Below are positions 25,883 to 55,419 of a stretch of 64,000 nt of DNA, piece after piece. Numbering within the stretch: the stretch's first letter is position 1; every line of letters begins with the position of its first letter. The position numbers were made by a program, and so were the translations under genes. The notes under the pieces are model-generated. The model was given only the letters and a program-made list of their open reading frames with translations. It did no database searches and was not told the DNA's origin. Source of the stretch: Rhynchopus sp. YZ270_cl-10 (Eukaryota); contig OZ037835.1 in the NCBI GenBank assembly GCA_964035575.1, forward strand, positions 992,001 through 1,056,000, in the 5' to 3' direction.

Positions 25883-26641
25883 GGGACAGCGGTGCAGAGG
25901 TTGTGGTACGTATGGCATGCATGGTTCAGAGCCTTGTGGCCATGAGGGTAACGGAGACTGTGCTGATTGGGACGAGTGAGCAGATCGTACAGTACTCCTG
26001 CGAGGGGGTGAAGATGCGTGCCATTGAGAAATGTGGGTGTTCCTTTGCAGTGTCACCCTGCGAGTCCCTGTTATTGAGCAACGGATCCTCAATTTCTGCA
26101 GTGTTCCGTCTGGACACCCCTGAGCTGTGTGAGGTGCACCGTGTGGACACGTTCGACGGGACGTCCTGGTTGCGGCCGATATTTTCGCCTGACGCAAGCT
26201 TCGCAGTGTTGAGCTCTAGCGAGAAGCGCACTGTCCGCACCATTGACATGGACTCCGGGCAGACGCTCTGCACACTGCGTAGTGTAGAGGTTATTAATGG
26301 CGTTATATATGCTGCCTGTTTCAGTGCGTGCTCGCGATACCTCTTCACAGCCTCTACCAGGAGTGTGCAGCAGTGGGATGCACGCAGTGGAGCCCTTATG
26401 GGACGCATCGACGCAGAGGGCACGTGGTCTGTGCATGCCTCGACAGACGGGTGCAGGCTGGTCGTTGTCGGAACAAGAGGTATCTCGGTGCTCGACCTTG
26501 CTGCCATGAACATACAGGTGTCAGAGCAGGACGCCCTGCAACATGGTCCCCCGCGTCCGCTCCCCTTGAAAGGAACTGTTGTGCAGTGGGTGTGTGTGTT
26601 CGTGAAGGGGAGGGTGTGGGGACAGTGCTGGAGGCAGGCTA
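25883..26641 (+). pseudogene. Inverted, 5'-truncated duplicate of the Ubl-WD40 gene (1927-3165)
   Basis: Near-identical translation from VVRMACMVQ onward; lacks N-terminus; indels near the C-terminus. Confidence 0.85.
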
Positions 26642-26865
26642 GAATAAGGGTGTATGAGGGGGTCAAACAGCCGTTTTTGACCAAAAAAAACAGCTATTTT
26701 GCGATTTTTTTTGACGCCAGGAGGACTCTGTTGGCCCAAATATCCCCAAAGATGAGCTGTGAGCGCATTCCGACCTGTTTTGGACACATTTGACACTTTT
26801 ATTTGTGTTTTCTTTGTGTTTTTGGGTCAAAAACGGCTATTTGACCCCCTCATACACCCTTATTC
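26642..26865. mobile_element. 224-bp MITE, Tc1/mariner-type
   Basis: ~41-bp TIR GAATAAGGGTGTATGAGGGGGTCAAA.AGCCGTTTTTGACC with one mismatch; TA on both flanks. Confidence 0.85.
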
Positions 26866-27772
26866 TATGTAAGGACCTTCACAAAGAACATTTGCGACAG
26901 GACCCAGCACCTCAAAGATCTTCATCAGAAAAGGGTCGGGGAGGGGTGAAATAGGTGAAGTGGGGCCAGAACAGCGAGCAATAAGCGTCGCAGCTACCGA
27001 GAAATAAACACACTGCCATGACCCTCTACATAAGACATGGGTTTTTGTGGGTATTATTTTGCAGCACAGCAGAACATAATTCTGTTTGATTACAGACTAC
27101 TATCACTAGATAGCAGGCACATTTTTTCTTCACAGGATCCTTAAAAGAGAGCAAATAGAAGGAGTACGCTTTGCAGGAGGTGTCAGAATCCTTTTTTGTA
27201 ACTTATTACGCATCCACTTGACGTTTGGATAAAGAAAAACAGAGACAAAAGGGGGTTTGGGGGAAGAGTTTAATTCTTGAACACATCCCCACACTCAGTC
27301 ACACAAGGCCTTTGCACAAATATGTCCACAGTCAACTCCTGTAGAGACATCCACGTGAACTTCCTTCAGCAGTGCCTGCAGAAGCTCTCGTGTTGACCTT
27401 CGGGACAAAAGAGTAAACAACTTCATGCATATTGGAGTGGCCAATCCTCCTGTAGCATGGAAAAAGGCAAAATAGAAATAGAGTCATTGAGTGAGAAAAC
27501 AGCAATAAAAAGGCGTAAAGCCAAAAAGGCAGAGGAGTGAAAAGAAAGCTTCACAATGGGGAGACAGCGTAACATAACACAATGTGTGGAACGTCTTGCT
27601 CAGCACAGCTCTCCTCTCGCACCAAGTAGCAGTCTGTGCCACGGTGAGCAAGACTGTGCCCCTCTTCTTCTCCGAACCAGAGGACGCAGCAGACATACTG
27701 CCAGAGACCCTCCACCTCGGGGAAGTGCTGCCCTCCCACCAACACACCACGTCGTCATTGTGCGTGTCTCCG

Positions 27773-32654: not shown

Positions 32655-33256
32655 ATAAACGTTTTTAAAAATAGGATGGAACACCCCGTTCCGAAGAGGA
32701 ATGCAGCCACCCCGAAAAAGTGGGGGTGTGTCGCCAGTCTGCGGTGAGAAACTCCTCCCTGAGTCAAAACTGCCGCTGGTTAGCGCTGGCTAAGGTTCCC
32801 TTTTCACCCGGTCACAATCGAGTCTCGCTCCGTCGGCGTTGACTGCACTGCAAAGCCCCTTGGTCCACCGTCGTAAAAAGACACCACAAAAAGCGTAGGT
32901 AGGTGGGGGACCGGCAGGTTACAGACAGAGGCAGTACGGAGCTAAGGTGTCGGCGGTCGCGGGTTTCCGTGGAGGCCTGCCCCCCGTGGAGGTCTTGGGA
33001 TCTGGGAGTTGTGGAAGTAATCGGCTCAGAGTACCCTGCATTCCATGCACGACTCGAGCTCCTTGTGGTAGGATATTGGGGTCCCGGGAAGCACCCTTCG
33101 CCCCGAGGTCCCACCACCCCAGACAGTTTGTAGGTCTAAAAGCACAACGTACTTGTCCAGGACCTGGCCGCTCTTGGGTTCTCTCGAAAAAAAGATACTA
33201 ATCCCGTACGCCCGTGCACCGCAAAAATGTGCTATGGGGGGCGGTCCGCCGTCGGG
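32655..33256 (-). mobile_element. 602-bp SINE-like partner of the 7.36-kb LINE, at Ubl-LRR site B
   Basis: 20-bp TSD ACTCTTCAACCTCTCGGCGG (32635-32654 / 33257-33276); 3'-terminal 59 nt match the LINE 3' end at 56/59. Confidence 0.9.
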
Positions 33257-33341: not shown

Positions 33342-35132
33342 TAGGGGTCCGTTTTCGATGCATGCACCCCTATCCGAGATAGGTGATACAATACATCGTG
33401 GAGGTGATGTTACATAAGTCCATCACCGCCCCTGCTGTGTCCATCCTTCTGCTTCTTCTTGCTGAAGAGGCCTCCCAACGTCGTCTGTCGCCCCCCCGCA
33501 GTGTCGTGGTGGCGGCGGCAGCAGTGGTCCAGGGTTGTCTTGTCCCGCACGCAATTTCCGCATCTCGAGAGTCTGTGTCGTGTGCACGCCTCGTGTCGAA
33601 TGGCCAGCCCATCGCCGTCGGAGTGGTGCGCATAGCAGCAGTGCCTCAGGTCTGCCATCTGGTCCTTCGCACAGGCGTCACATCGGGCCTTCCGGTGCTG
33701 CACACAGATCGCAAATGGCCCAATCGAGATCGCTCCTGCAGGTGCCTTCACAGGCGCGTCTCCTGGCTTCACGTGCTCATCGTGCCTGTAACGTATGGGC
33801 ACGTTCTCCTCTTCTGCCTGCTCGAAAAAGCGCAGCGCCCTCCTTCCCCTCTCGTCTGCGGGGGGGTATGCCGTCTCAGCAGCGTACTCCCCCATCCACG
33901 TACCCCTCGCTCTACCGTTGCCCCTAATCTCCCCCTCCGTCATGCCTTCCGTCTTGCGCTGCTGTCGGTACGCCGTGCCAGCGTCGAAAAGTGCACGTAG
34001 AACACGTATGGTCTCTTCACCGCCGGCAAAAACAGGACGGCAGTCGATACCGGCGAGACCGTGTGCCCCGAACGACGTCAGTGTCATAGCTATCTTCGGC
34101 TTACCCGGATGCAGTGGCGTTGCAGCATGGGTTCGGAGAGTAGACAGCATGTGACCAAAAGTGGTCGCTTTCGCCATTTCGTTGTGGGGAAGAGCTTCTG
34201 GCATCACGTCGTCGCCGTCGCCGTCGTCGCTGCCACCCTCCCCACCCCCGTCATCCATTTCCCCGTCGCCACCCCCACCACCATTGACAACGCCCCCAGC
34301 CCCGTTCCCCGGTTGCTTCACTTTTGGCGGCTTTTTTCCAGTCTTATCTCCGGGGCGGATGTCCATCCCCGTGGAGACCTCGAAGTCAATGAGGAGTTCC
34401 ATGTGCGAGACTTCGCGTCCAGCCTCGTTGCTCCACCGCAGGCCTCCCAGCCAGTAGGCAATCGCCAGCAGCAACGCACGTCCATACGGCCATTTCTTCA
34501 CTGGGAGGGTGCAGCTTCCTAACACATTCGGATACTGCGTCGTCGTGTCCGCATCCGGTTCCCATGTCCACGGATAACGCTCTTGCTCCAGTTGCGGCTT
34601 CATCTCTTGTGTCCTGTTTTGCCGGTATCGCTCGATGAGGATCCTCACCATCATCATCTGCAGGTCTGCAACACGGGCGGTGGCCAAAGGTGTTTCCGGT
34701 GTGCACATTCCGCAGATAGACAGACAGTTCGGCCAGTTCGTTCTGTCAATGTTCAGGAGTAAGGGGTAGTCCGTGCGGATGCTTTCCCATGCGACACACT
34801 CCCACCACATATGCTTGGGATCCTCATCCACCCCTGCAGCACAATACGGGCAGGTGGCCGTTTCTCGTAACTTTGCCCTCGCAAGTCGCACCCCCGTGAG
34901 AGTACCGTCAGCCACGATGTGTCGTAACGTCCCCGCCTCGTAGTCCGACAAAACTTTGCTCTTGGTAAGCGCCAGTGTCTTCTCCTTGTCCACCCCTGCT
35001 CGGATCCCCCGCAGGTTAGCTCTGCCTCCGCCTTTTGCATTCACGTCTGTCTTCGTACTGGAGAGCCGTACGAAGAACATGCGCTCCCGCACAAGATGGC
35101 CGAGTTCCCCTAGCTCAATGGTCTTCACATCG
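33342..35132 (-). mobile_element. 5'-truncated non-LTR retrotransposon (second family) at Ubl-LRR site A
   Basis: 18-bp TSD TTCCTCATCTTCGTGAGG (33324-33341 / 35133-35150); encodes post-RT CPYC...EDPKHMWWEC finger and WPY...WL..LRW...VSHMELLIDFE, homologous to the long element. Confidence 0.9.
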
Positions 35133-35347
35133 TTCCTCATCTTCGTGAGGATGATTGTGTCACCAGCACTCAGCTGCGTCATGTCCGCTCCTTCTCCCAG
35201 CGCTTCGTCTCCGAAACTCATGCAAAAGCCGTCTTCAGGCAACCCCATTGCAGACGCCACCTTCCGCCGCAAGCCCTCCACTGTGTCATCTGCACCCACC
35301 TCGACTGTGTGCTGATTCGTGTCGAAACCCTTGATGTTCAGGTCCAT
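33410..35347 (-). CDS. Chimeric ORF: host Ubl fused in frame to retroelement C-terminal region (645 aa)
   Basis: Continuous frame from host ATG 35347 through ...IILTKMR|NDVKT... to stop at 33410. Confidence 0.5.
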   Translation of the reverse strand: MDLNIKGFDTNQHTVEVGADDTVEGLRRKVASAMGLPEDGFCMSFGDEALGEGADMTQLSAGDTIILTKMRNDVKTIELGELGHLVRERMFFVRLSSTKTDVNAKGGGRANLRGIRAGVDKEKTLALTKSKVLSDYEAGTLRHIVADGTLTGVRLARAKLRETATCPYCAAGVDEDPKHMWWECVAWESIRTDYPLLLNIDRTNWPNCLSICGMCTPETPLATARVADLQMMMVRILIERYRQNRTQEMKPQLEQERYPWTWEPDADTTTQYPNVLGSCTLPVKKWPYGRALLLAIAYWLGGLRWSNEAGREVSHMELLIDFEVSTGMDIRPGDKTGKKPPKVKQPGNGAGGVVNGGGGGDGEMDDGGGEGGSDDGDGDDVMPEALPHNEMAKATTFGHMLSTLRTHAATPLHPGKPKIAMTLTSFGAHGLAGIDCRPVFAGGEETIRVLRALFDAGTAYRQQRKTEGMTEGEIRGNGRARGTWMGEYAAETAYPPADERGRRALRFFEQAEEENVPIRYRHDEHVKPGDAPVKAPAGAISIGPFAICVQHRKARCDACAKDQMADLRHCCYAHHSDGDGLAIRHEACTRHRLSRCGNCVRDKTTLDHCCRRHHDTAGGRQTTLGGLFSKKKQKDGHSRGGDGLM

Positions 35348-35376
35348 GTCTTTGTTGTGGTTTTGTGTTCTGATCT

Positions 35377-35407
35377 CTGTGTGTGGTGGGGTGTTGGTGG
35401 TGATCAG
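35377..35407 (-). promoter_or_regulatory. Candidate trans-splice acceptor of Ubl-LRR genes
   Basis: Sense strand CTGAT (branch-point-like), C/A-rich tract, then ACAG about 30 nt before ATG; similar upstream of other copies. Confidence 0.35.
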
Positions 35408-36489
35408 AGTGCGAAAACAATAAAGTAAGTGCATGATTATCGACCTCCCCCTGCCCCTGTCAAGCACCGCACAGCCTCCACGCTGTCTCCACCCACCCCA
35501 CGCAAGGAAGAACGCCACAGGTGCTCTCGTACTGCAACCACAGACAAGCTGAGGTGCCAGACAAATTGCACGAAAGCACCTCACGGCCGGCCACAGCTTC
35601 CCCTCTCCCATCATTTCCACAAAACGATGCAGGGAAGCGCCACACCCAAACCCACACTCACAACACACCTCCCTGCCCCCACAGACCTTCACCGCAACAG
35701 GGAGAACACCCAAACCCCACATCAACCTGCAACATCAGCACACCCCCATTCGCACTGCCCGGACACAACACATGACCACCCCAGATCACACACAGCACAA
35801 CTAATGCATGCGCACCTCGTCTCAACAGCAGGCACCTTGACTGGCGAGAGCCCCACCACACTCGGTAATACGGACACTTCAGTCCACATGGTGCAAGCAA
35901 CGGGTGGTACCAGGGAGCATCCTCCACGGGAGACTTTTTACGCCGTCCCAAGGCAAAAGAGAATTGGGAAACAATACTTTTGCAGCATCAAAGAAGTGGT
36001 GACTGGGGACATTTCCTCCTTTTTAGTCTTTGGCTAAAAGCACAAAATACAAACTCACTTCTGGTACAGGGTCGTGGGAGGATGCGTCCAATGGAAATCA
36101 CGTCGGTAGAATAGTTCGAGAATGTAGGTTTTTACTATTTTTGAAAACTTGGTTGTATTAGTGTAGCCACCCTAGAGTGTGCTTCACTATACTATTTTTA
36201 GTTTATGTGGATTGGGCCTTGGAGAGGGCACCACCGCACGAGGCAGTGTCAGCACCATTCGTGCTCGTCACTCAGACTGCAATCAGTCTTGGAAAAGAGG
36301 CAAACACAAAGAGCAAGTACGAACAGTGTGCGCACTCCTTGCTATTCAAAAGAATCCGTCTCGCAAGTTCAGGTTCCACAGCATCAGCATTGCGACAGCC
36401 TAATGCACGAGGAACTGTTGGAGGGACACCGATCACTCTCTTCAGCCGCAACCCATCAATCGTCCCGTCTTCCCCAGTGCAGATGCTCC

Positions 36490-38270: not shown

Positions 38271-40665
38271 GGCTTCGACGCTCAGGGCCATCTTCCTGAT
38301 GTGTTTGTTTGCAGAAGCTGGTGTGTTGTCGCTGTTCGTGTACTGCTGTGATATGTTCTGGGCAGTCTTGCTGTACCCAAGCAGAGAGTCCTCCCTACCC
38401 ACACACAGCTCTGCACACTGTTCCCACTCACCCCACCCCACTGGCAGAGGCGACACAGTGCTGCTATAAGATGCAGTACCACCCATAGACACTCCGCTGT
38501 CTCCACCCACCCCACGCAAGGAAGAACGCCAAAGGTGCTCTCGTGCTGCAACCACAGACAAGCTGAGGTGCCAGACAAATGCACGAAAGCATCCCACGGC
38601 CGGCCACAGCTTCCCCTCTCCCATCATTTTCACAAAACGATGCAGGGAAGCGCCACACCCAAACACCCCCCACACTCACAACACTGTGCACCTCCACCTC
38701 CCTGTCCCCACCCAACCCAACCCACAGACCTTCACCGCAACAGGGAGAACACCCAAACCCCACATCAACCTGCCACTCCCTTGGGTACTCTTCCTCCAGG
38801 CAAAAGCCATCAAGAGAAACGGTTACCACCCCCGGGGTTGCCTCCTCCTCCTTTGTGCAGCGCTGCTGCACTTCCCACACCCACCCCGCCCCACGATGTC
38901 TCCCACCTCGCAGAAATGAAAGTCAAATATAATAAAAACCCCTTTCATCTTTTGTTTAGTTGGTACGCTACCCACGTCATACGCAAAGTATTTGTCCTAA
39001 TAAAACAAATACATCCGTTCACTCGATTAATGTTGAAGACTCATGGCAACCGAAGAACGCGTCTTTCATTTCCAGACGTATTGCATAAAGGCGTTGATTC
39101 AAAAGGGGGCAACAATCACGAGAATGGGAATAGTGGTGGAGAGATTGAGAAGGTGAACGCTTCCCTCCCCTCCATGTCACACTTTGTGTATCAGTATTGA
39201 TAAGGTTGACACAGCCTGGCACAATACTGTCCGATCCGGTGACGTTGGTCCTGCTTCTACTCATTTTGCACCCTTTAAGGAAGCCAAAACCAACTATAGT
39301 GAAGTTTGAGGGGCGGTTCACGCTAAAGGGAGTCCCAGAAGCATAGTTTCATTTCATAGTTTCATTTACCCATATGAGCAATTGGTGGCAATGACCAAAT
39401 TTGTATCAATCAAGAACTTGCTAATTTTTCCGAAATGACCCCACTACAGTGGGGGTAGAGCTCGGAAAATCCGAAAAAGGCCAAAAACCTCTCCAAAAAC
39501 GGGGAAAAAACGATACAACATTTCCAGAATTTTGCTGTTTCCCCAGTAGTTTTTTCTTGTGTGCGTGCGTACAGATTGTTTGGGGAGGTTGGGACCCAGA
39601 ACAAGAAAAAAACTTGTGCTTCCCTAAATAATGAAACCCCCGTTCATCTTTTGTTTAGTTGGTACGCTACCCACGTCATACGCCCCAAGCACCCCAAGAC
39701 GACAGTGAAAGACCACGTGGTGTCAACGAGTTCAGGAGTGATGAATTGCAGATAAAAAGGGGGTTGGGTGGGGAGGTACGTTGTAATGAATAAGACATGG
39801 GTTTTTGTGGGGATTCTTTTGCAGCACAGTTGAACATAACACAATGTGTGGAACGTCTTGCTCAGCACAGCTCTCCTCTCGCACCAAGTAGCAGTCTGTG
39901 CCACGGTGAGCAAGACTGTGCCCCTCTTCTTCTCCGAACCAGAGGACGCAGCAGACATACTGCCAGAGACACTCCACCTCGGGGAGGTGCTGCCCTCCCA
40001 CCAACACACCACGTCGTCATTGTGCGTGTCTCCGTCGCTTCTGGCTTTGCTCGGGGGACTCGTCTCTGCTTCGTTTCGGACGTGCTTCAACCACAAGCTT
40101 CCTCAGCTTCTCGCCCTTCCTCACTTCGTTGGACACAACACTGCTGCAGCCGGAAAGGTAAATGCTCGCCAACGAAGTGCAGCCCGCAACAATATTTGTA
40201 CCGAATAAACCGCTACTAATGTGCGTCACGTTGCTGAGTGGAGATAAATCGAGGGTCGTTAAGCTGATGCATTCCTGAAGGAAGTGCGCACCAACGTGCG
40301 TCAGGTTGCTGAGTGGAGATAAATGGACGTTGGTTAAGCTCTTGCATCCGTAAAGAAAGCCGCCGTCAATCAGCGTCACGTTGCTGAGTGCAGATATATC
40401 CAGGGTCGTTAAGCTGCTGCAGTGCTGAAGGAACCACGCACCAACCTGCATCACATTGCTCAACCCAGAGAGGTCGACACTTGTCAACGAGGTGCAGTTG
40501 GCCAGGAAGCAGTCTCCAATGTGAGTCACAATGGACTCAGCACTGAGATCAAGTCTCGTCAACGAAGTGCGTGACAAGAACCCATTCGGAATGACAGTCG
40601 CAACCTCCGCCTGCAGAAGCAAACACGCCACCTCAGGATCCTCCACACTCTCCAACCTCTCGGCG

Positions 40666-43600
40666 ATAAACGTTTTTAAAAATAGGATGGAGCACCCCGG
40701 TCCGAAAAGGAATGCAGCCACCCCTGGCTTCAGGCTCGCGAACCCAGCGTTGATGTAACACAGGGTTTCACGGGCCAAAACCAGAAAAAAATGAAAAATT
40801 GAGGGTTCAACGACTGCGCCAACTGGTCTCATGCGACGTTGAACCAACTTAAAATCTAGAATCTTGTGTCAACTTGTAAAGAAAAGCAATGAATATTAAA
40901 ATTACCGGTTTCAGGCGTGGCGTACACGTCTGCTGCCATCTACGCTGGGATAGCCGTCCGGTTTGAACTTGGGGTTCAACAACAGTGCCAAATGGACTTA
41001 TGCGTCGCTGTGTCAACTGAAAAACAATGAAAAACAAGAATGTCGTTGAGGAAGATTGAAATGCATGAAAAACAAGAAGAACAAGGTAAAATATCTACAG
41101 AGGGTGCTGTCCTAGCTTGTCCTCTTTCGTTGTCTCGCCCACACTAAGCTTCTCAACGGCCGTGCAGGCGAGCTTTGTGGCGTTCACGTTGTTACTGCTG
41201 TCGATGTGCACCAACGTGATGCTTCGGGTCGCTCTCAGCTTGTCAAGCTCACCCCGCGCCTCTTTCTGGAGGTGGGCGACTGCCGCGTATGGTCTGCAGT
41301 GCTCGTTCACCTGGTCAACCACGGTTCTACTGGATCCGTAGATGTTCAGTGGTGTGGTGTCTGTGTCGCTCTTCAGGTATTCGAGGCACATCAGCAGTCC
41401 TTCATACTCCGCGACGTTCAGGGTTGTGTCCGCCAGGCGACTGCTGGCTGTCCACCGCACCTCGCCATCTATCTCGAGGCGTGCACCTGCGCCCGATCCC
41501 TGGCAAGTGTTTTTCTTCACCCTCGCCCCCGGCTGCCTCACGTTGCAGTATCCGCCGAAGAAGATGCGAGTGTGTCCGGTGGGTTTCTTTGGTTTTCGTC
41601 GAGCCTGCTTCTGCTGCTTCTGCTCAGCAGCCAAGCGGATGTGCTTCGCAATTCTGTCTGCTCTCTCCTGTTTGCAGTCCTCGTCTAGGGGTGGGAGCTC
41701 TGTGTTCGTCCAGGATTTGTTCCCTTTGCAGAGGGTTGGCAGGGACCGGATCGTCTTGAGCACCTCAGCAGGTTCGGTGAGGATGGGTCGTCTCGTGATC
41801 GCTAGGGTTCCCCACTTGATGCCTAGGTCTAATGGGGCGAACACTTTGCTCTTGGGGTAGATGGTGCCCGAGAAGAGGTACGCGTTTGCTGCCACTATCT
41901 TTGCCTTAGCCATCCAGTTGCTGAACCAGGTGATTTTGTCGGTGATCATGGAGCTCTCTCGGGAATTGGGTTCCTCTGTGGTGAGCTTTGCTCCTGTGTG
42001 CGCTTCGAAGTCCAGCGCCAGCTCCAGGTGCGAGACGTGCTGTGATTTCCCATTGGACACCGTCGGCCACTTTAGGCTTTCCAGCCACTCCTTGAGTGCG
42101 AGGTATCCTTCCGCTTTGTACGGCCACGCGTCTGGCACCTCGTCAGGAAGTACTCCTATGTAGGTCTCGTATGGGCCTTCTGGTTCCCATGTCCAGGGAA
42201 AATTGTCCATTTGGCTCGTCTTCGTTGTAGTGGTACCGCGTTTTCTCTTGTCCTCCCTCTCTAGGGCGATGTCTGAGTACATGAGAAGCAGCAGCTCTAG
42301 GGCTTCTCTGTTCGGCACTTCCGGAATCATCTGGAAGCCGGCGGGGAGAATGGCGTTGAGGCGCAGGCATTTCGGCCAGCTTTCTCTTACTGCTGGATCG
42401 GACACTCCTGCGTATTTGTGCTGTTCGCGTATGTGTGCGGTGTGGCTGCATTGTTCCCACATGTGTTCAAAGTCCTCCACACCTGTGCCGCAGTGCTCGC
42501 ACGTGTCACTGGTGCTCATCTTCATTCTTTTGCGCCTGTCCTGTGTGAGCTCCGCTCCTGCAAGAATGTTCCTCATGTACCCTGCACGCAGTGGATCTGT
42601 GTTCTTGTAGCTGTTCCACACGGCGTTGATCGTGCGATAATCGATGCCATCTTTAACCCCTTGCATGTCCTCCCTCCTTGTCTCGAGTCTACGGCAGAAA
42701 TCGTCCCTGATACCGTCTCGGAGTTGGTGTCGAAGAAGGTCACCCTCGGGTTCGTCGAGGTTCATCTGTGTTGTGTGCGGGGGCAATAGGGTGTTGTTCT
42801 CCCAGCGCCAGTTCATGGATTGGGTGGTGCGGAGGAGGATGTCTACCGGTCCACAGTATTTTACTCTCGACGTCCGCTTCAGGATACGGATCTCGTCTAT
42901 TAGGGTTCTAATCTCCTGGTTCTTCCCCATGGTGTAGAGCGCGAGCAGGCGTTGGTACTTGAGGTAAGATGTTGGGTCTGTCCGGTGTAGCGGGTTCAGC
43001 ACTCCCCTCACTATTTCACTGCATCTGCTAGGTAGGCCCCTCCAAATCGCCGCCGTCACTGCTTTGGTGAGCCTTCCAGCGGTGGTGGACAGCGGCTCGT
43101 ACGTCTCGCAGCCGTAGAGTGCCATGGGCATTATTTTTGTCGCCACCAGTTCGGCTCTGCCTTCAAAGGGGACGTTGAGGTGAGGGATACGTCGCGCACA
43201 TGTCTCAGCTTTGCGCACTCGCTTGTCCAGCTTTGTCGCTGCTTCCTTTTTCTTGGCTACGGCCAGTCTGATCACTGCGCCGAGATTGTCCAGTTCCTTC
43301 TTCTCCTGTCTCAGCTGGGTGTCTCCGAGCATGAGCTCCAGCTTTTCGGTCTTGGCTGTCGAGAAGGAGAAACTACTTCCGTACGTGAGGTCGGTCTTGG
43401 TGGCGAAGTCGTGGGACACTGTGAGGCCTTTCCTCAATTGTGCGGTGTTGTTCGAGGTCATGGTGGTGTCGTCCGCGTACAGGCTTGTCCGACATCTGGT
43501 TTCCGTCCGAACCGCCGCCTCCCACACTGCTAGGAGGGCGTTCAGCAGGATAATGCTCAGCGCACATCCCTGCAGAATGCCATTGTTCGCTTTGAACTCC

Positions 43601-46600
43601 TCACCGACCGTACCGTATAGTTTGAACCGCCTCTTCAGGTCCCTGTACATGCTCTTGAGGGGCCGCGTGATCTTCATGTCGATCCCCATTTTCTCCACAA
43701 GACTGAAGGTTATGTCCCACGGTATGGTGTCGAAGCATTTCTTAATGTCCAGAAATACTCCTCGCAGCGTGTTCCCCGACACCATTGCTTTTTCGACCAG
43801 GAGTGCGGTGAGGTAAAAAGCGTCACGTGTTCCGTGCCCAGTCCTGAAGCCGTGCATGGATTCCGGTGCCCATGTCTCTTGCCACACCATTAGGCTCGTC
43901 AACCTTGTCTTTGCCCATAGCCGATATACCGCCGACATCACGGAAATTGGTCGGTGGTCGAGTGGTTGTGGGTCCTCCACCTTGGCGATCATGCTCACGG
44001 TCGCGTGGAGGAGAGCTTCTGGCCATACGCCCGTCTCTTCTACTTGGTTGAGGATTGATGCCAGCCTGTCGAAGATCCCCGTTGGGAGAAGCGCAAGTTC
44101 TTCTGGGTGCCATCCGTCTGTGCTGGGGGCCTTCCCCTTCGGCATGCTCTCGGCCACGGCTTTCAGCATCCTTCCGGTTAGGGGTTCTACGTGCATCGGC
44201 CGTTGAGGTATGTGTGTGCCAAACCTTTCCTCGAACGCTTCCCACGTGGGTGTGTCACTCAGGGTGTTGTGCTTTTGAAGTATGGGAAGCCATGCCTCAC
44301 GCAACCACGTGTCCATGTCCTCCACATTCGCGGTCTCTTCCGTCCCGCGCTTCATCGTGTTGCACCGCATTTTGGCTCCGTTGAGGCGCTTGTAGATGAG
44401 CCCTGGTGTGGTGTGCCATTGCGTGCGTATCATGCGGTACCTTTGCGTGGCCCTGTCCCTCTCCAGGTTCTTTCTGGCAGTTTCGAGTCTCTGGTGCAGG
44501 CGCTGTATCAGCTCCAGTGTCGTGCTGGCCTGCGGCTCCTCCTCTGGGGTAGCGTCGAGAATGCTCACCAGCCCTGCCTTCGCTTTGTCCCACGCCTTGC
44601 GTGCGCTGGGTGTGAGGGCTCCTTTGGTGCGTAGAGTGTTGCCGACCTCAGTTAGTCTGCGGATCGTCTTCCGGATGCGCGTCATCTTGAGGGTCTCTCC
44701 TGCGTCGCCTTCGCGAGACTGTCTGCTGCACAGCCAGGTGCGTCGCAGTTTGGGTGGTCGGCCTTTGCGAAAACATGCTGCTGAGTTGTCGTCTCCCTGC
44801 CGTGCCCAGAAGTTGGTCGCATCCTCATTCCATGCTTTCCACTTGTCCTCTACCAATGTGCTTGCGTGCCATTGTGCTTTGGAACCATCGCAGATCTCTT
44901 CAGCCTCCTTTTCAAGGTCTGCCTTCGTTTTCTTCCTGCTCAGTTCATCCTGTTGTAGCATAGGGGGCCTTTCCTGCTTGAGCACACGCTGCCGGTACGT
45001 CATATTTTTAAATGTCGCGTCCAGGGGGATGTGTGAAGGTATTCCGGCCGTCCCCGTTTTGCACCCTGCCAGCGCAAGCACCGCGATTTGGTTGGCCAGT
45101 ATGATGTCAATTCGTGAGCACACACTTTTGGCTTCAGACTTTGTGCTCTTACCGATGTGGGTGTGCTCTGGCTCTTGGTTGGCCCAGCCCGCGGCTCGTT
45201 CGGCACAGTCCGTCCATCGTTCTGAGCTGATGGCTAGGGATATTGCTTCGCTTGAGCTGGGTTCTGGGTGGCTGTTGCAATCCCCGAGGATAATCGCTGG
45301 TACGTCCCCTATCTCTGCTTCTGCAAATACATCCGATAGGAAGCTCTCGCGCTCTTGCTTTGCTTGCGGGGAGTTGCCGACTTTGGCGTATATCACGAAT
45401 AGGTGTAGAAAATGGTTCCCTGCCCCATGTGCCACCTTTGCGTGCAGGTAACGCTTTGAGTCCCAGAGTCTCTTTGCTCGTTCAGTATCTCTCCTGACCA
45501 CACTTGCTGGTATGCCTCGTTTCACCATTAGGCCCACCCCCTTGTGCTCTCCGTAGCTCTGTTGTATTGCATTTGGAAGTAACTTTACTGGGCACCCCCA
45601 GAGACCTGTCCAGCCTTGTTCATACAGCGTTCGGGAAGCTTGGGCCTGTTTCTTCTGTGTGAGCCGAGTCTCCTGCAGTGCGACTATGTCGTTGTCCCAA
45701 CTCCACACCTCCTCCTGGTGAGCATTCATTGAGGTGATGTTGGCAGTACGTATGGACAGGTTTGGAGTGGCCCGGGCAGCGCGGCGTCGCTTTCTCTCCG
45801 TCTTGGTACGTTTCCGTGAGCGAGACACTGCGATATTCGTGTCCAGGTTCTCCAGCGTGACACAGCGGTTGCCTTCTGCCTGCGTCGTTGCAATCAGCGA
45901 CAGCAGCCCCTCGGTTGCTTTGAGGCGGTCGAAGTGCTCGGGCCTGTACGTGAGCACAACTGGGTTCGATGTAGGTGGTCCGCCGACGTGGCTAAACCGT
46001 TTCGCTCTGGCATCCAGTACCCAGATGGCCCTGTCGAGTATGCTTGCCGCAGTCTGTAGCTCACGTTCTCCACCGTACGTTCCTTGCATTCTCATTTTGG
46101 CTAGGTGTTGCGTGTAGGTGGGAGGTTCGTTTGCCTCAGGAGAGTAGCTGTCAGCATAGAGGTCACTGTCGTCGTTTTGCAGTACGTCCACCACCCGTTG
46201 TCGCAGTGAGTTCGTTGTCCACCCCTCGCTCTGCTCAGCTATGGCAGTGAATAGGCAGTCCCCGTCTGGCGCTACTGCTATCCTTGTAGAGTTGATACTG
46301 CGGGCTGTTGCGTCCAACCACTCCTTGTGGTCGGTGATGGCCCTCAGTGGGTTCACGGGATTGTCGTTGTTTTTGGGGTAGGCGCTCCTACCTATCCCCG
46401 GTTCTATGTGCGATTCTAAGTACGTATCTAATCTAGTGGGGTCTGCCTTTGCGTCCAGCCAGTTTCTAGTTTGTTCTAATTCTAAGAGGGGGTCGGGAGT
46501 TGATTTACAGGGGATAGGGGAAGGAGAGTTCAGAGATCGAGGTTGAAGTCGAGCAGGTTCGCTTGTCCTTGGCTTTTCCCTGGGTCGTCTTTTCCCTTTC

Positions 46601-48027
46601 CCTTTCCCTTCTTCCCCGCCAGCGGCGACGCGGAGAAGATGTCGTCGAGGGAGGCGGCCGCGGATGGCGGGGCGGTGGTTCCCCCTTTCCCCTTTCCCCT
46701 TTCCCGCCTTCCCCTTTGCAAGTGGGGTCTTTGCCCCCTTGTTTGTCTCCGCGGGAGACGGCGTGGGTGCCTGCGGCGGAGTCTTCAGCGACTCTGCGTC
46801 AGGGAGTGGTGATGGGGGTCGTGGGGAGCTGGGCTGTGAGGCGGTGGTGGCGTTGGCGTTGGTGTTGGTGCTGGTGTTGGCGGATACCACCCTCAGGATG
46901 TGCTGCAGGCACTCCTCCGTCGAGATCTGCCGAGCCTCGATGCTCTGCAGACGCCCATCCATGCCGTGTAGCACGGCCGTCGTTTCGGCGTGCTGCGACG
47001 CCTGTCGTTCCAGCAGGGCTTCGATGCCCTTGCCCATCCCTTCCACCCCGATGCTCATGGCCTCGAGTCCCCTGCCCATGTGCAGAAGGGCAGCCGTGGT
47101 CTCCTGGCCTGTGCGTGATAGCTGTGTCAGCGCGGCCGCGTTCTGCTGCACCACCGAGAGCAGCGGGTCGAGGTTCTGAGGTGTGGTGAAGGTCTGTTGG
47201 TGATGGGATCTTTGCTCCTTGCGCTGCAGCCATGCCAGCTCCAGCTGTGTGCCTTCCTCGAAGAGAAGTTTGCCTCTGGCTGCCCCGTACTCCTGCCTGA
47301 ACTCTGCAATGGTATACTTATCCTTGCGGTTCCTCACCGTGGGGTCGGGGACTCTCTTGGGGGCGTGGTTGTGGTTGGTGGTGGTGGTGGTACTAGTATC
47401 CTTTGCTTCTGCGGGGAAGATTGACACCACAACGTTTTGCCACTTGATGCTGCGGTGTGGGGGCTGGGACTCCGCACGCACCACGAGGGTCTTCTCCCCC
47501 GTTCTGCCCTTGTTGAGCAGCGTCACCACCCGCGCCCCCTCCCACTGCATCGCCTTCAATGCGGTGACGCAGTCCGCTCTGGTTGCCTGGGGTGGGACAG
47601 GTCTGAGGTCGTATACCCGGGCGGCGGAGTTCGTTGCCTTGCTGTCGGGTATCTCGAGTGTGAATGGGGGGGTGTCGTCCATAGCCTCCGGGGTGTCGCC
47701 GCTGCTTCCTCCCCTTAGCCTACCCAGCTCCCACACGTTGCAGTGCGTCCTGCACATCCGGAGCGACTCCTTGTCGCTCATGTCCCTTCCGTTGATGGTA
47801 AGGCGTTGCACGTCTCTGCGTCCACCTGTCTTCGCTCGCACTGCCGCCTTCAGGTCAGCCACCGAGTCCGCGTCGCTGACGTCCACTGTCACTGTCTTTC
47901 CAGTAAGCGTTCGCACAAAAATCTGTCTTTTTTCTTCGTCGTTTTCTTCTTCTTCTTCTTCCGAGTCTTTGCCGCAGTCCACTGCGTTGCCCGGGGTCAC
48001 CTCGTGGAGGTGCTCGGTAAAAACCCC
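40666..48027 (-). mobile_element. Full-length APE-type non-LTR retrotransposon (7.36 kb) at Ubl-LRR site B
   Basis: 19-bp TSD ACTCTCCAACCTCTCGGCG (40647-40665 / 48028-48046); 5' HDV-like ribozyme; one long ORF; ~430-nt 3' UTR; no poly(A) tail. Confidence 0.95.
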
Positions 48028-48309
48028 ACTCTCCAACCTCTCGGCGGTCAGGTCTGTCTCACCCAACGCATGAAGCTCTGCAATGGCTTGGTACTTCTGC
48101 GTCTTCGTGAGGATGATTGTGTCACCAGCACTCAGCTGCGTCATGTCCGCTCCTTCTCCCATCGCTTCGTCTCCGAAACTCATGCCAAAGCCGTCTTCAG
48201 GCAACCCCATTGCAGACGCCACCTTCCGACGCAAGCCCTCCACTGTGTCATCTGCACCCACCTCGACTGTGTGCTGATTCGTGTCGAAACCCTTGATGTT
48301 CAGGTCCAT
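41095..48309 (-). CDS. Host Ubl (94 aa) fused to retrotransposon polyprotein: Ub-RLRGG, coiled-coil ORF1-like region, OTU protease, APE endonuclease, RT, CCHC finger, RNase H-like (2404 aa)
   Basis: Ub QIFVRTLTGKT...RLRGG (47707-47928); OTU DGDCLF...YGGERE...EHFD (~45920-46290); APE TANI, LQET, GDCN, SRID (~45020-45760); RT LDIKKCFD, LQGCALS, YADD; CEHC..EDFEHMWEQC; RNase H NVAEYEGL (~41170-41570). Confidence 0.9.
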   Translation of the reverse strand: MDLNIKGFDTNQHTVEVGADDTVEGLRRKVASAMGLPEDGFGMSFGDEAMGEGADMTQLSAGDTIILTKTQKYQAIAELHALGETDLTAERLESGVFTEHLHEVTPGNAVDCGKDSEEEEEENDEEKRQIFVRTLTGKTVTVDVSDADSVADLKAAVRAKTGGRRDVQRLTINGRDMSDKESLRMCRTHCNVWELGRLRGGSSGDTPEAMDDTPPFTLEIPDSKATNSAARVYDLRPVPPQATRADCVTALKAMQWEGARVVTLLNKGRTGEKTLVVRAESQPPHRSIKWQNVVVSIFPAEAKDTSTTTTTNHNHAPKRVPDPTVRNRKDKYTIAEFRQEYGAARGKLLFEEGTQLELAWLQRKEQRSHHQQTFTTPQNLDPLLSVVQQNAAALTQLSRTGQETTAALLHMGRGLEAMSIGVEGMGKGIEALLERQASQHAETTAVLHGMDGRLQSIEARQISTEECLQHILRVVSANTSTNTNANATTASQPSSPRPPSPLPDAESLKTPPQAPTPSPAETNKGAKTPLAKGKAGKGKGERGNHRPAIRGRLPRRHLLRVAAGGEEGKGKGKRRPREKPRTSEPARLQPRSLNSPSPIPCKSTPDPLLELEQTRNWLDAKADPTRLDTYLESHIEPGIGRSAYPKNNDNPVNPLRAITDHKEWLDATARSINSTRIAVAPDGDCLFTAIAEQSEGWTTNSLRQRVVDVLQNDDSDLYADSYSPEANEPPTYTQHLAKMRMQGTYGGERELQTAASILDRAIWVLDARAKRFSHVGGPPTSNPVVLTYRPEHFDRLKATEGLLSLIATTQAEGNRCVTLENLDTNIAVSRSRKRTKTERKRRRAARATPNLSIRTANITSMNAHQEEVWSWDNDIVALQETRLTQKKQAQASRTLYEQGWTGLWGCPVKLLPNAIQQSYGEHKGVGLMVKRGIPASVVRRDTERAKRLWDSKRYLHAKVAHGAGNHFLHLFVIYAKVGNSPQAKQERESFLSDVFAEAEIGDVPAIILGDCNSHPEPSSSEAISLAISSERWTDCAERAAGWANQEPEHTHIGKSTKSEAKSVCSRIDIILANQIAVLALAGCKTGTAGIPSHIPLDATFKNMTYRQRVLKQERPPMLQQDELSRKKTKADLEKEAEEICDGSKAQWHASTLVEDKWKAWNEDATNFWARQGDDNSAACFRKGRPPKLRRTWLCSRQSREGDAGETLKMTRIRKTIRRLTEVGNTLRTKGALTPSARKAWDKAKAGLVSILDATPEEEPQASTTLELIQRLHQRLETARKNLERDRATQRYRMIRTQWHTTPGLIYKRLNGAKMRCNTMKRGTEETANVEDMDTWLREAWLPILQKHNTLSDTPTWEAFEERFGTHIPQRPMHVEPLTGRMLKAVAESMPKGKAPSTDGWHPEELALLPTGIFDRLASILNQVEETGVWPEALLHATVSMIAKVEDPQPLDHRPISVMSAVYRLWAKTRLTSLMVWQETWAPESMHGFRTGHGTRDAFYLTALLVEKAMVSGNTLRGVFLDIKKCFDTIPWDITFSLVEKMGIDMKITRPLKSMYRDLKRRFKLYGTVGEEFKANNGILQGCALSIILLNALLAVWEAAVRTETRCRTSLYADDTTMTSNNTAQLRKGLTVSHDFATKTDLTYGSSFSFSTAKTEKLELMLGDTQLRQEKKELDNLGAVIRLAVAKKKEAATKLDKRVRKAETCARRIPHLNVPFEGRAELVATKIMPMALYGCETYEPLSTTAGRLTKAVTAAIWRGLPSRCSEIVRGVLNPLHRTDPTSYLKYQRLLALYTMGKNQEIRTLIDEIRILKRTSRVKYCGPVDILLRTTQSMNWRWENNTLLPPHTTQMNLDEPEGDLLRHQLRDGIRDDFCRRLETRREDMQGVKDGIDYRTINAVWNSYKNTDPLRAGYMRNILAGAELTQDRRKRMKMSTSDTCEHCGTGVEDFEHMWEQCSHTAHIREQHKYAGVSDPAVRESWPKCLRLNAILPAGFQMIPEVPNREALELLLLMYSDIALEREDKRKRGTTTTKTSQMDNFPWTWEPEGPYETYIGVLPDEVPDAWPYKAEGYLALKEWLESLKWPTVSNGKSQHVSHLELALDFEAHTGAKLTTEEPNSRESSMITDKITWFSNWMAKAKIVAANAYLFSGTIYPKSKVFAPLDLGIKWGTLAITRRPILTEPAEVLKTIRSLPTLCKGNKSWTNTELPPLDEDCKQERADRIAKHIRLAAEQKQQKQARRKPKKPTGHTRIFFGGYCNVRQPGARVKKNTCQGSGAGARLEIDGEVRWTASSRLADTTLNVAEYEGLLMCLEYLKSDTDTTPLNIYGSSRTVVDQVNEHCRPYAAVAHLQKEARGELDKLRATRSITLVHIDSSNNVNATKLACTAVEKLSVGETTKEDKLGQHPL
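47961..48027 (-). ncRNA. HDV-like self-cleaving ribozyme
   Basis: GGGGTT TTTA CCGAGC ACC TCCACGA GGT GACCCC GG GCAA CGCAGT GG ACTGCG G C AAA GACTCGG parses as P1, P2, P3, canonical L3, P1', P1.1, GCAA, P4, catalytic C, P2'. Confidence 0.88.
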
Positions 48310-53599: not shown

Positions 53600-54194
53600 C
53601 AGTCCAAGGTCCTTAAGAACCCGATGAGTGCATACAGAGAACGGAACTACCTCGGTATGACGTTGCGCAGCGTATGTTGCTATCATGTATTTGGGAGTAC
53701 TGCGGTGCACAGAAGCATGGAGTCTTGAGACAGGTAGTGTGGAAAAGGGGAGGCGTGGCTACATGACGCACAAGCCAAATATCAGTGCAAAGGCGCACAG
53801 CGGATTGGAACCTTTTTCTGATTCCAGAAGGGGTGTTGCGAGGCTGTGCATGAGCACAATGCCGAGGCACACCGGGGAAAGCAAAGAACCAGCCCATGGG
53901 TGTTCAGATGAAGTGCCGCAGTCCTACCCAGGTGGCGAGGATCCTAGAGAGGCAGGACCCAAGCAGCTACACAGGGAGACTCGCTTCGCCGCAGGTCTGG
54001 TGCAGAAGCGGATCTCAACAACGGGTGTCACGACGTGTGTAGCTGGTCGTCTGCAGAGATGCCTCTCCGCTACTGTGCAGCGTCGGATGCTTCAGCCACA
54101 TAGATGGCTGCACGACTGGCTTAGAGAGGTTCACGAGGGGCGCCAGCCAGAAACCTGTCAACATCAATCTGAACGTATATGGGTGAGTCTTTCA
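53600..54194 (+). mobile_element. Possible decayed 3' end of an RLE-type (CRE/SLACS-like) non-LTR element
   Basis: Weak motifs across frames: LLSC...KHGVLRQVV, RRTAD, LQRCLSATVQR; directly followed by a simple-repeat tract. Confidence 0.3.
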
Positions 54195-54458
54195 GTTGTT
54201 GTTATTGTTGTTATTGTTGTTATTGTTGTTATTGTTGTTATTGTTGTTATTGTTGTTATTGTTGTTATTGTTGTTATTGTTGTTATTGTTGTTATTGTTG
54301 TTATTGTTGTTATTGTTGTTATTGTTGTTATTGTTGTTATTGTTGTTATTGTTGTTATTGTTGTTATTGTTGTTATTGTTGTTATTGTTGTCATTGTTGT
54401 TATTGTTGTTATTGTTGGTATTGTTGTTATTGTTGTTATTGTTGTTATTGTTATTGTT
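54195..54458. repeat. (GTTGTTATT)n tandem repeat, about 29 units
   Basis: Directly visible. Confidence 0.97.
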
Positions 54459-55419
54459 CACGGTGGCCAGTTTGATGTGGGAGAGCGTCAAAAGCGGACG
54501 AAAATACAGGTTGAGAATTGCTATCCCGCGGGGAGCGTGCGCTCTCCCAAAAAACGTCAATTTTTTGACGCTCTCCCGCTCACACTGGCCACCGTGTTGC
54601 TGCATATTTTTCACACTTTTCACATGCCCCTTCACAGACACCTCTTTTCCATCGTAGCGGGGGTATCCAGTCTTTCTAAAGCTGGCTCATACCAACGACA
54701 GCAGAAGCTGAAGCAGGAGGTATCAGGGGTACCTTTCTGCCACTCTGGTCACAGAAACATAGGGGTGGTTGTGAAACCATATTCTGGGTTTTGGGGGCTT
54801 TTGGGCAAAAAATACACTTTTTTTTGACCCATTTTTGGGTATTTTAGGGTGGTTTAAGAGGGACAAGGCCACCACATGACGTTGGTGACCAACAAGCTGC
54901 AGGACAGCGTGGATCGGTACGCCGTCGCACGAGGATGGGTGACTAGTGTCCGCAACCCTGAGACTGTTTTTGAAGAGGTCGCTTGTTCCGTCTGCAGGGA
55001 CGTAAAGAAGATGGCCACAGGCATCATAGGGACAGAACATGGTGCCCAGTTCGTGGCGTCGGTCATGGAACACATGAGAGTGCGAATGGGAAGAGGACAG
55101 CGGTAGTGTTCTGGCAAAGACGAGGAATGTTGGAAGAGGGTATGGCAAAGGATGTTGAGGGCCAGGGGGCTAAGTCGCTTTGCCAACTCGGGATTGAGGT
55201 GACTGCCGCCATGGGCTCCACAGCGGTCAAGTGGGCATTGACATGAGATACGATCATCGTCCTTCACCCACATAAACATGGGGAAGGTCGTCCAAGCATG
55301 AATCATGCTAGTGGGGTGCTTTTTCCGGTAGCCGGCTGCCTTCTGCTTTTCGAGCAGGACACCTAGAGTATGTGGTGTGGAATCAGACTTGAAGTTACTA
55401 GTTGAATTTGTACAGGGGA

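Follow-up and report, generated by a model that had tools for sequence, protein, structure and literature searches.

A full-length LINE that lies in sense orientation within a gene of a ubiquitin-like/leucine-rich-repeat (LRR) family begins with 67 nt that are likely a self-cleaving ribozyme, freeing the element RNA from the host transcript with an exact 5′ end. The mode of release proposed here is patterned on L1TcRz (PMC3185411) and R2 (PMC3774820) as those sources describe them. By that analogy, a host transcript would enter the element in sense, the ribozyme would cut before the first nucleotide (G1), and the freed RNA would be copied into the same site of another paralog; we put the probability of this reading at about 0.8. 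"The window" below denotes the whole stretch of DNA that was analysed (64,000 nt), and ribozyme nucleotides are numbered from G1 = 48027 on the minus strand.

The element and its target site

The junctions of the element are defined by the following features, all on the minus strand:

40666..48027, minus strand: full-length non-LTR retrotransposon, 7,362 nt, in host-gene sense, without a poly(A) tail
48028..48046, minus strand: 5′ TSD copy, 19 nt
40647..40665, minus strand: 3′ TSD copy, 19 nt, identical to the 5′ copy
48028..48309, minus strand: 5′ part of the interrupted host gene, with its ATG at 48309, 94 codons and a ubiquitin-like domain, in frame with the element
40017..40646, minus strand: 3′ part of the interrupted host gene, leucine-rich repeats
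40666..40724, minus strand: 3′ tail of the LINE, 59 nt, predicted to form a hairpin and sharing 95% identity with the second insertion's tail
32655..33256, minus strand: second insertion, in the same site of a paralogous host gene, 602 nt, with a 20-nt TSD, the same 3′ tail and a different 5′ end

Because G1 is identical to the next host base, the LINE copy alone is compatible with a TSD of either 19 or 20 nt. The second insertion starts with C, which places the junction immediately before G1 of the LINE and makes the predicted cut site the 5′ end of the element. The initial annotation had stated that G1 at 48027 adjoins the TSD and had inferred that the element is full length. Both points stand, the former because the two 19-nt copies are identical and the second insertion fixes the junction, the latter because the 5′ end is common to six other copies at the protein level.

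Nine paralogous target sites were found in the window, seven of them empty and two filled at the same base. Protein records add five further insertions at the target site. Three of these have the full 5′ end (P0020, P0048, and P0057) and are joined at the same host codon, and two that are 5′-truncated (P0014 and P0019) are joined at the same host site. P0048 and P0014 directly follow the tail of another element. The 602-nt insertion, which is either a SINE partner or a truncated copy of a sister family, gave no HDV-family match at E ≤ 10 and no match to the structural descriptor described below; its presence at the same site indicates that landing there needs no detectable ribozyme. Its tail differs from that of the LINE at three positions, one of which converts a G-C pair of the predicted hairpin to G.U.

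All host genes annotated in the window are on the minus strand, an arrangement in keeping with the co-transcribed clusters of Diplonema papillatum (PMC10161547). Between 9300 and 60000, ubiquitin-like/LRR paralogs with a 75-nt repeat unit are arrayed on this strand, interspersed with ankyrin-repeat genes and an HSP70. A 5′-truncated LINE of another family (35150-33324, minus strand; 33% identity to the C-terminal part of the main element) also occupies the paralog with the 602-nt insertion, at a point some 75 nt upstream of the main site. An 18-nt TSD flanks it, and its reading frame continues that of the host N-terminus (ORF 33410-35734). P0020 appears behind a tail of the same kind as that of this LINE. 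The ubiquitin-like/LRR gene family thus has at least two insertion hot spots. Elsewhere in the window are a 594-nt inverted repeat pair 23 kb apart (2007-2678 and 25883-26641), a MITE-like 53-nt inverted repeat around 122 nt (26640-26867), a short inverted repeat cluster (700-1220), and a 9-nt tandem array (54133-54519); no tRNA was found in the window.

A compact HDV-like fold at base 1

The candidate ribozyme and its parts are as follows:

47961..48027, minus strand: HDV-like ribozyme candidate (from fold, Rfam, and descriptor), nt 1-67 of the LINE and also ORF1 codons 1-22; predicted cleavage between 48028 and 48027, predicted catalytic C57 at 47971
P1: G1-C35, G2-C34, G3-C33, G4-C32, U5-A31, U6.G30 (6 bp, terminal U.G)
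P2: C11-G67 to G15-C63 plus C16-G61 (6 bp, A62 bulged)
P3: A17-U29, C18-G28, C19-G27 (3 bp)
L3: U20-A26 (7 nt, U20 and G25 in place)
P1.1: C21-G37, C22-G36 (2 bp)
Linker and P4: G-C-A-A linker, then P4 of 5 bp with a 4-nt loop
J4/2: G56-C57-A-A-A (predicted catalytic C57, then an A-rich stretch)

The nested double pseudoknot that the initial annotation had drawn from these 67 nt is borne out: the five helices P1, P1.1, P2, P3, and P4 all parse, and 22 of 22 pairs are standard. The conserved HDV-like core is complete, with U20 and G25 of L3, a C-C/G-G P1.1, and the J4/2 C followed by an A-rich run; the consensus used for this comparison was checked against Rfam and eight natural matches. In a 12-kb search, the whole of Rfam model RF02682 (HDV-F-prausnitzii) aligns from 48027 with 37.8 bits (E 0.00038), which is below its gathering score of 44. 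In the whole 64-kb window the candidate is the sole Rfam match at E ≤ 0.1 (E 0.002). A structural descriptor, designed after the candidate had been seen, matches once in the window, with G1 at 48027, and in none of 300 dinucleotide-shuffled windows. The covariance-model and descriptor searches proposed in the initial annotation as a check were favorable as to uniqueness, but not as to the gathering score.

In nested folding the active fold is not the preferred one. With a program that does not model pseudoknots, the folding energy is ordinary (z -0.29), and the nested-fold probabilities are at least 0.96 for P4, at most 0.31 for P1, and at most 0.13 for P2, pseudoknots being outside the model. 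When at least 40 nt of host flank are added, the nested model takes the probability of P1 to 0.00, as the flank pairs with the P1 5′ strand. The placement of the predicted cut at the TSD junction speaks for a ribozyme; against it stand the 6-bp P1 with its terminal U.G, the Rfam score, and a nested fold that disfavors P1 and P2.

A structural reference class was assembled from metagenome contigs by a degenerate scan for the ribozyme core, which returned 122 stretches, of which 121 loci were examined further. None of the 121 matches the element protein by tblastn, and the descriptor matches 19 of these loci, all picked for the core motif. Segment parsing of eight hand-picked natural HDV-like RNAs showed the same core as in the candidate, with different P1, P2, and P4 sequences. 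P1 is 7 bp long in all eight, vs. 6 bp in the candidate, and a 6-bp P1 occurs in 5 of the 19 descriptor matches. Like RF02682 and the metagenomic HDV-like RNAs, the candidate has the P3/L3/P1.1/GCAA core, J4/2, and a bulged P2 base; unlike RF02682, it has a score below the gathering threshold and a 6-bp P1. The Pr77 hallmark has a similar P3/L3 core. A 23-nt exact ribozyme pattern had no match in viral contigs, and no relative was found there. Among the metagenome loci, L004, L005, L025, L030, L031, L042, L050, L057, L058, L061, L066, L068, L069, and L097 form an HDV-like ribozyme family, of which several contigs carry at least two; the printed flanks have a U-rich run before the ribozyme and an ATG shortly downstream. 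Additional HDV-like candidates with the same core (L002, L017, L028, L046, L047, L048, L052, L056, L075, and L105) lie on unrelated metagenome contigs.

Coding layout and sequence conservation among copies

The coding features of the element, all on the minus strand, are:

46530..48027, minus strand: ORF1 in its sibling-copy form, Ala/Pro/Lys-rich, with TGA at 46532-46530 in the sibling frame
47926..47960, minus strand: acidic, GAA-rich linker between ribozyme and ubiquitin, diverging faster than both neighbors
47707..47925, minus strand: ubiquitin domain of ORF1, without initiator Met and with RLRGG at its end; it contains the element's first ATG (nt 247)
46682..46688, minus strand: extra 7-nt repeat unit that joins ORF1 and ORF2 into one frame in the window copy
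46590..46596, minus strand: X XXY YYZ heptamer in the ORF1 frame within the ORF1/ORF2 overlap, a candidate -1 frameshift site
45928..46269, minus strand: OTU cysteine-protease domain, whose D-G-D-C and H-F-D motifs align with OTU1/OTUD3
45082..45747, minus strand: AP-endonuclease domain
43291..43959, minus strand: reverse transcriptase (RT)
42433..42603, minus strand: zinc-binding domain after RT, below the Pfam cut-off
41130..41570, minus strand: RNase H-like domain (approximate ends), 3 of 4 catalytic acidic residues replaced

An AP endonuclease and an RT within TSD-flanked ends identify the element as an APE-type non-LTR retrotransposon. Its nearest named relatives are from Rhynchopus and Diplonema (31-38% identity), which makes a diplonemid the likely host, and the RNase H catalytic acidic residues, three of four of which are lost in the element, are kept in four relatives. 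Sequence alignment shows the catalytic Cys and His motifs of the OTU domain in ORF2 to be intact. No Pfam family besides ubiquitin was found in ORF1, and no ORF1 relatives were found outside the element family, atlas matches all being <0.8. Among 156 relatives examined, 48 have a readable endonuclease start and 34 of these have enough upstream sequence. The region before the endonuclease carries a 2A-like motif in 9 of the 34, an OTU domain in 11, both in none, and neither in 14; the mutual exclusion has a Fisher P of 0.017, a value that ignores relatedness and is drawn from a set including the query and two isoforms of one gene. One related LINE family (P0032, 36% identity) is represented by a truncated copy fused in frame to a DUF4116 gene, the N-terminus of which looks ubiquitin-like by eye.

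The window copy reads as a single ORF of 2,310 codons. As a family trait this was rejected, the arrangement being peculiar to the window copy; sibling copies carry two ORFs. P0016 and P0020 exit the window frame near 46,720-46,740 and stop at 46532, and the 7 nt at 46682 are missing from most contig depth in three of four sequencing runs, the fourth having no cover there. The extra unit may be real or may be an assembly slip. Since both the sibling copies and the contig depth lack it, the family layout is ORF1 plus an overlapping ORF2 in the -1 frame. The overlap (46740-46530, minus strand) is about 60 codons long, and no strong stimulator or structure was found downstream of the heptamer ending at 46596. 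A second subfamily has another ORF1 end, the same -1 overlap, and an ORF2 that is 99% identical, which suggests exchange of ORF1 between subfamilies.

Other copies were examined as proteins (15 of the 19 proteins in the element's own cluster, together with two other clusters, one of 3 and one of 1). The ribozyme codons are present in six other records (P0016, P0020, P0048, P0049, P0056, and P0057). Across these six, three amino-acid changes fall in the ribozyme codons, all in J1/2 or the P4 loop. The probability of such loop-only placement by chance is between 0.0025 (8 nt free to change) and 0.052 (all unpaired nt free), silent changes being invisible at this level. The confinement of changes to loops is conservation, not covariation. 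In diverged copies, 20-21 of 22 ribozyme codons and 70-71 of 73 ubiquitin residues are identical; the intervening linker retains 4-8 of 12, and the segment just downstream of ubiquitin 108-112 of 153. The read-contig tables, which are without haplotypes, list no changes within the ribozyme, six changes in the 12-codon linker, and four silent and two replacement changes in ubiquitin. Runs X2 and X3 each have one contig in which the junction appears to carry just three G; that would disrupt G1 as well as the reading frame, and it is a counter-example to a perfect end and frame.

P0049 joins a different gene subfamily at the same spacing, with an 8-codon linker deletion that keeps the frame. Its 932-aa frame runs from a host N-terminus through ribozyme, ubiquitin, partial ORF1, and a Cys/His-rich host-like segment to a complete ubiquitin-like/LRR gene; it is possibly a chimeric host gene with an embedded ribozyme. 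Contig depth is higher over the ribozyme than over ubiquitin, which hints at more ribozyme-bearing elements but is not a copy number. In run X1 a contig leaves the element at 47944, just past the ribozyme, and enters a different sequence, a hint of another element that shares the ribozyme.

Proposed RNA release and the start of ORF1

The comparison with 5′ ribozymes of L1Tc/ingi and R2, made in the initial annotation, is supported, as is the HDV-like fold at base 1 of a TSD-bounded LINE. L1TcRz is described as cleaving at +1 and leaving a 5′-OH (PMC3185411), and R2 retrotransposons as carrying 5′ HDV-like ribozymes (PMC3774820). Like L1TcRz/Pr77, the element has its HDV-like fold in the first 67-77 nt with a cut predicted at +1 (PMC3185411, PMC4035085). 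According to these and further sources (PMC5814959, PMC1874656, PMC12278014), L1Tc/ingi share with it a euglenozoan host, co-transcription of host genes (presumed for the element), the APE-RT-RNase H order (RNase H being degenerate here), insertion into a multigene family, and short partners with shared ends. Unlike L1Tc as so described, the element has two ORFs in sibling copies and an N-terminal ubiquitin plus OTU where L1Tc has a 2A peptide; unlike L1Tc/ingi, it has a 19-20-nt TSD, a degenerate RNase H, a 2-bp P1.1, and a frame that is open already at base 1 and lacks an ATG ahead of the first domain. The single ORF with 2A before the endonuclease and the poly(A) tail of L1Tc/ingi are thus both lacking: no [NH]PGP (2A) motif was found in the element, which ends in its conserved 59-nt tail, and no named ingi or L1Tc protein was among its protein-search matches. 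Like ingi/RIME and L1Tc/NARTc in RHS genes (PMC7563717), it occupies a fixed position near the 5′ end of the coding sequence in a multigene family, and this position is used by long and short elements and by stacked insertions. The RHS insertions are described there as nonsense or frameshifted pseudogenes, whereas here the host N-terminus runs in frame into ORF1 and the target is a ubiquitin-like/LRR family.

R2 targets the non-coding 28S rRNA and uses a restriction-like endonuclease. Unlike R2, the present element has an AP endonuclease and a protein-coding target. It resembles R2 in its site specificity within a multicopy gene, in its release from a co-transcript (inferred here), and in an ORF that can lack an initiating Met (PMC3774820, PMC13188248). 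A 2A peptide ahead of the endonuclease has been described in APE-type LINEs (PMC3708506, PMC3894237), and OTU/Ulp1 proteases in DNA transposons (PMC2836005). The element is like the former in having a processing device before the endonuclease (PMC3708506) and like the latter in being mobile with a ubiquitin-type protease; unlike both, it combines ubiquitin with an intact GG tail and an OTU domain in one LINE, the OTU carriers described in PMC2836005 being DNA transposons.

In the proposed mechanism, the host gene cluster would be co-transcribed, as described for Diplonema papillatum (PMC10161547). The predicted ribozyme would cut before G1 by means of C57, leaving a 5′-OH that the fold would protect, and target-primed reverse transcription would copy the freed RNA into the corresponding site of a further paralog. 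ORF1 would start either at a non-AUG codon on cut RNA, as in R2, or at the host ATG on uncut RNA. With either start, the N-terminus that precedes the ubiquitin would be stripped by a cut after RLRGG, made by a deubiquitinase that may be the OTU of the element itself. ORF2 in sibling copies would likely be reached by a -1 frameshift.

Two readings deny the 67 nt a releasing role. Chance resemblance inside coding sequence would accord with the Rfam score below the gathering threshold and the ordinary nested folding energy, but it is hardly credible, as none of 300 shuffled windows contains a match and the lone match begins exactly at the insertion junction. A real fold might instead be inactive, or function chiefly as a Pr77-like DNA promoter or protein-binding hallmark, with its sequence kept for the peptide or by recent exchange of a 5′ module. 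In L1Tc, Pr77 doubles as an internal promoter (PMC1874656), and inactivity has been described for some of the trypanosomatid hallmarks (PMC4035085). Recombination could in addition give low divergence of ribozyme and ubiquitin, since the subfamilies share ORF2 at 99% and differ in ORF1. However, the catalytic-core nucleotides are all intact, and the linker has six listed changes in 12 codons with few in both neighbors; a single recent block exchange does not predict a fast linker between conserved neighbors. We therefore regard this alternative as improbable and retain release by a ribozyme as the preferred reading.

For the translation of ORF1 there are two rival accounts. The 22-codon reading of the ribozyme is in frame with the host ATG at 48309. 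The initial annotation had stressed this open reading, and the reading and its phase are as it claimed, but a stop-free frame is unremarkable: 66% of 20,000 shuffled 67-mers have one, a second frame of the ribozyme is open too, and among the 19 natural HDV-like matches 10, 11, and 15 are open in the three frames. Expected by chance about two times in three, the open frame was discounted as evidence on its own and gains weight only in combination with the fixed in-frame target site, the lack of an ATG before the conserved ubiquitin, and the OTU protease. Upstream of the first ATG there are only two in-frame GTG codons, one of which is altered in other copies, while the codon-10 GTG is present in every copy seen. 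With a conserved ubiquitin that lacks Met and a first ATG at nt 247, translation of ORF1 likely begins upstream of that ATG, judging from the sequence. Inserted in frame in a host gene and with no start codon ahead of ubiquitin, the element may borrow the start codon of the host.

A cap-independent start of the R2 kind, with initiation on cut RNA at a non-AUG codon within the ribozyme or directly downstream of it, would make the open frame and the host phase incidental, and we give it somewhat less than an even chance. R2 ORFs can do without an initiating methionine (PMC13188248), a part in non-canonical initiation has been proposed for R2 5′ regions (PMC11331408), and an IRES-like mechanism has been proposed for L1Tc (PMC3185411). 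The tandem copies without a host ATG (P0048 and P0014) and the retained codon-10 GTG are consistent with such a start, which by itself leaves the N-terminal cleavable ubiquitin and the targeting of coding sequence unexplained. These features would be accounted for by an extension of the release model that is compatible with it: the ribozyme would be leaky in the host context, and ribosomes starting at the host ATG of an uncut host mRNA with a spliced-leader cap would read through the ribozyme into ORF1. ORF1p would be freed by a cut at the ubiquitin tail, the cut RNA would be the transposition template, and the in-frame target and open ribozyme would be selected. This extension is possible but on balance unlikely. 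In its favor are the absence of an ATG before nt 247, with one of the two GTG codons changed elsewhere, and fusions of the host ATG to ORF1 in the window copy, P0057, and P0049; that of P0049 involves a second gene subfamily, has equal spacing, and stays in frame despite the linker deletion. The ubiquitin ending in RLRGG, the intact OTU motifs, and the 2A-like and OTU devices that never occur together in the 34 relatives also fit, as would the predicted competition of the host flank with P1, which would damp cleavage. However, a fixed target site sets the phase once, so that being in frame is a single 1-in-3 event, and the copies were found by a protein search biased to in-frame ones. Of the 7 copies with a ribozyme, no more than 3 have an intact host-ATG fusion: another element's tail precedes P0048 and P0020, and the calls for P0016 and P0056 begin at an internal GTG. 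The open frame arises in most shuffles, and the table of 2A and OTU ignores relatedness. The fullest form of this extension is likewise doubtful: the LINE would target one in-frame codon boundary of a host gene family to borrow its cap and start codon, the ribozyme would be a coding switch (uncut RNA translated as a fusion, cut RNA used as template), and the ubiquitin, cut by its own OTU or a host enzyme, would free the protein, in the role that 2A has in related LINEs.

Neither a diplonemid LINE ribozyme nor a LINE with ubiquitin plus OTU was found described in the literature covered, and an earlier description in Repbase, in subscription papers or in supplements is possible; the word ribozyme does not occur in the main text of PMC10161547. 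The HDV-like ribozyme candidate is of a known kind, in a new lineage, and in an element with an unusual expression design. It extends the 5′ release ribozymes of LINEs to a likely diplonemid. The LINE that carries it has an AP endonuclease and is targeted to a protein-coding site with base precision, and the compact 67-nt candidate tolerates being coding sequence. How translation starts on uncapped, ribozyme-cut retrotransposon RNAs is at issue for R2 and L1Tc as well. Here, a start from the host ATG on uncut RNA and one from a non-AUG codon on cut RNA lead to simple predictions that are opposed to each other, with the ubiquitin tail marking a defined end of the protein. If the coding-switch reading is true, release would happen twice, once at the RNA and once at the protein level.
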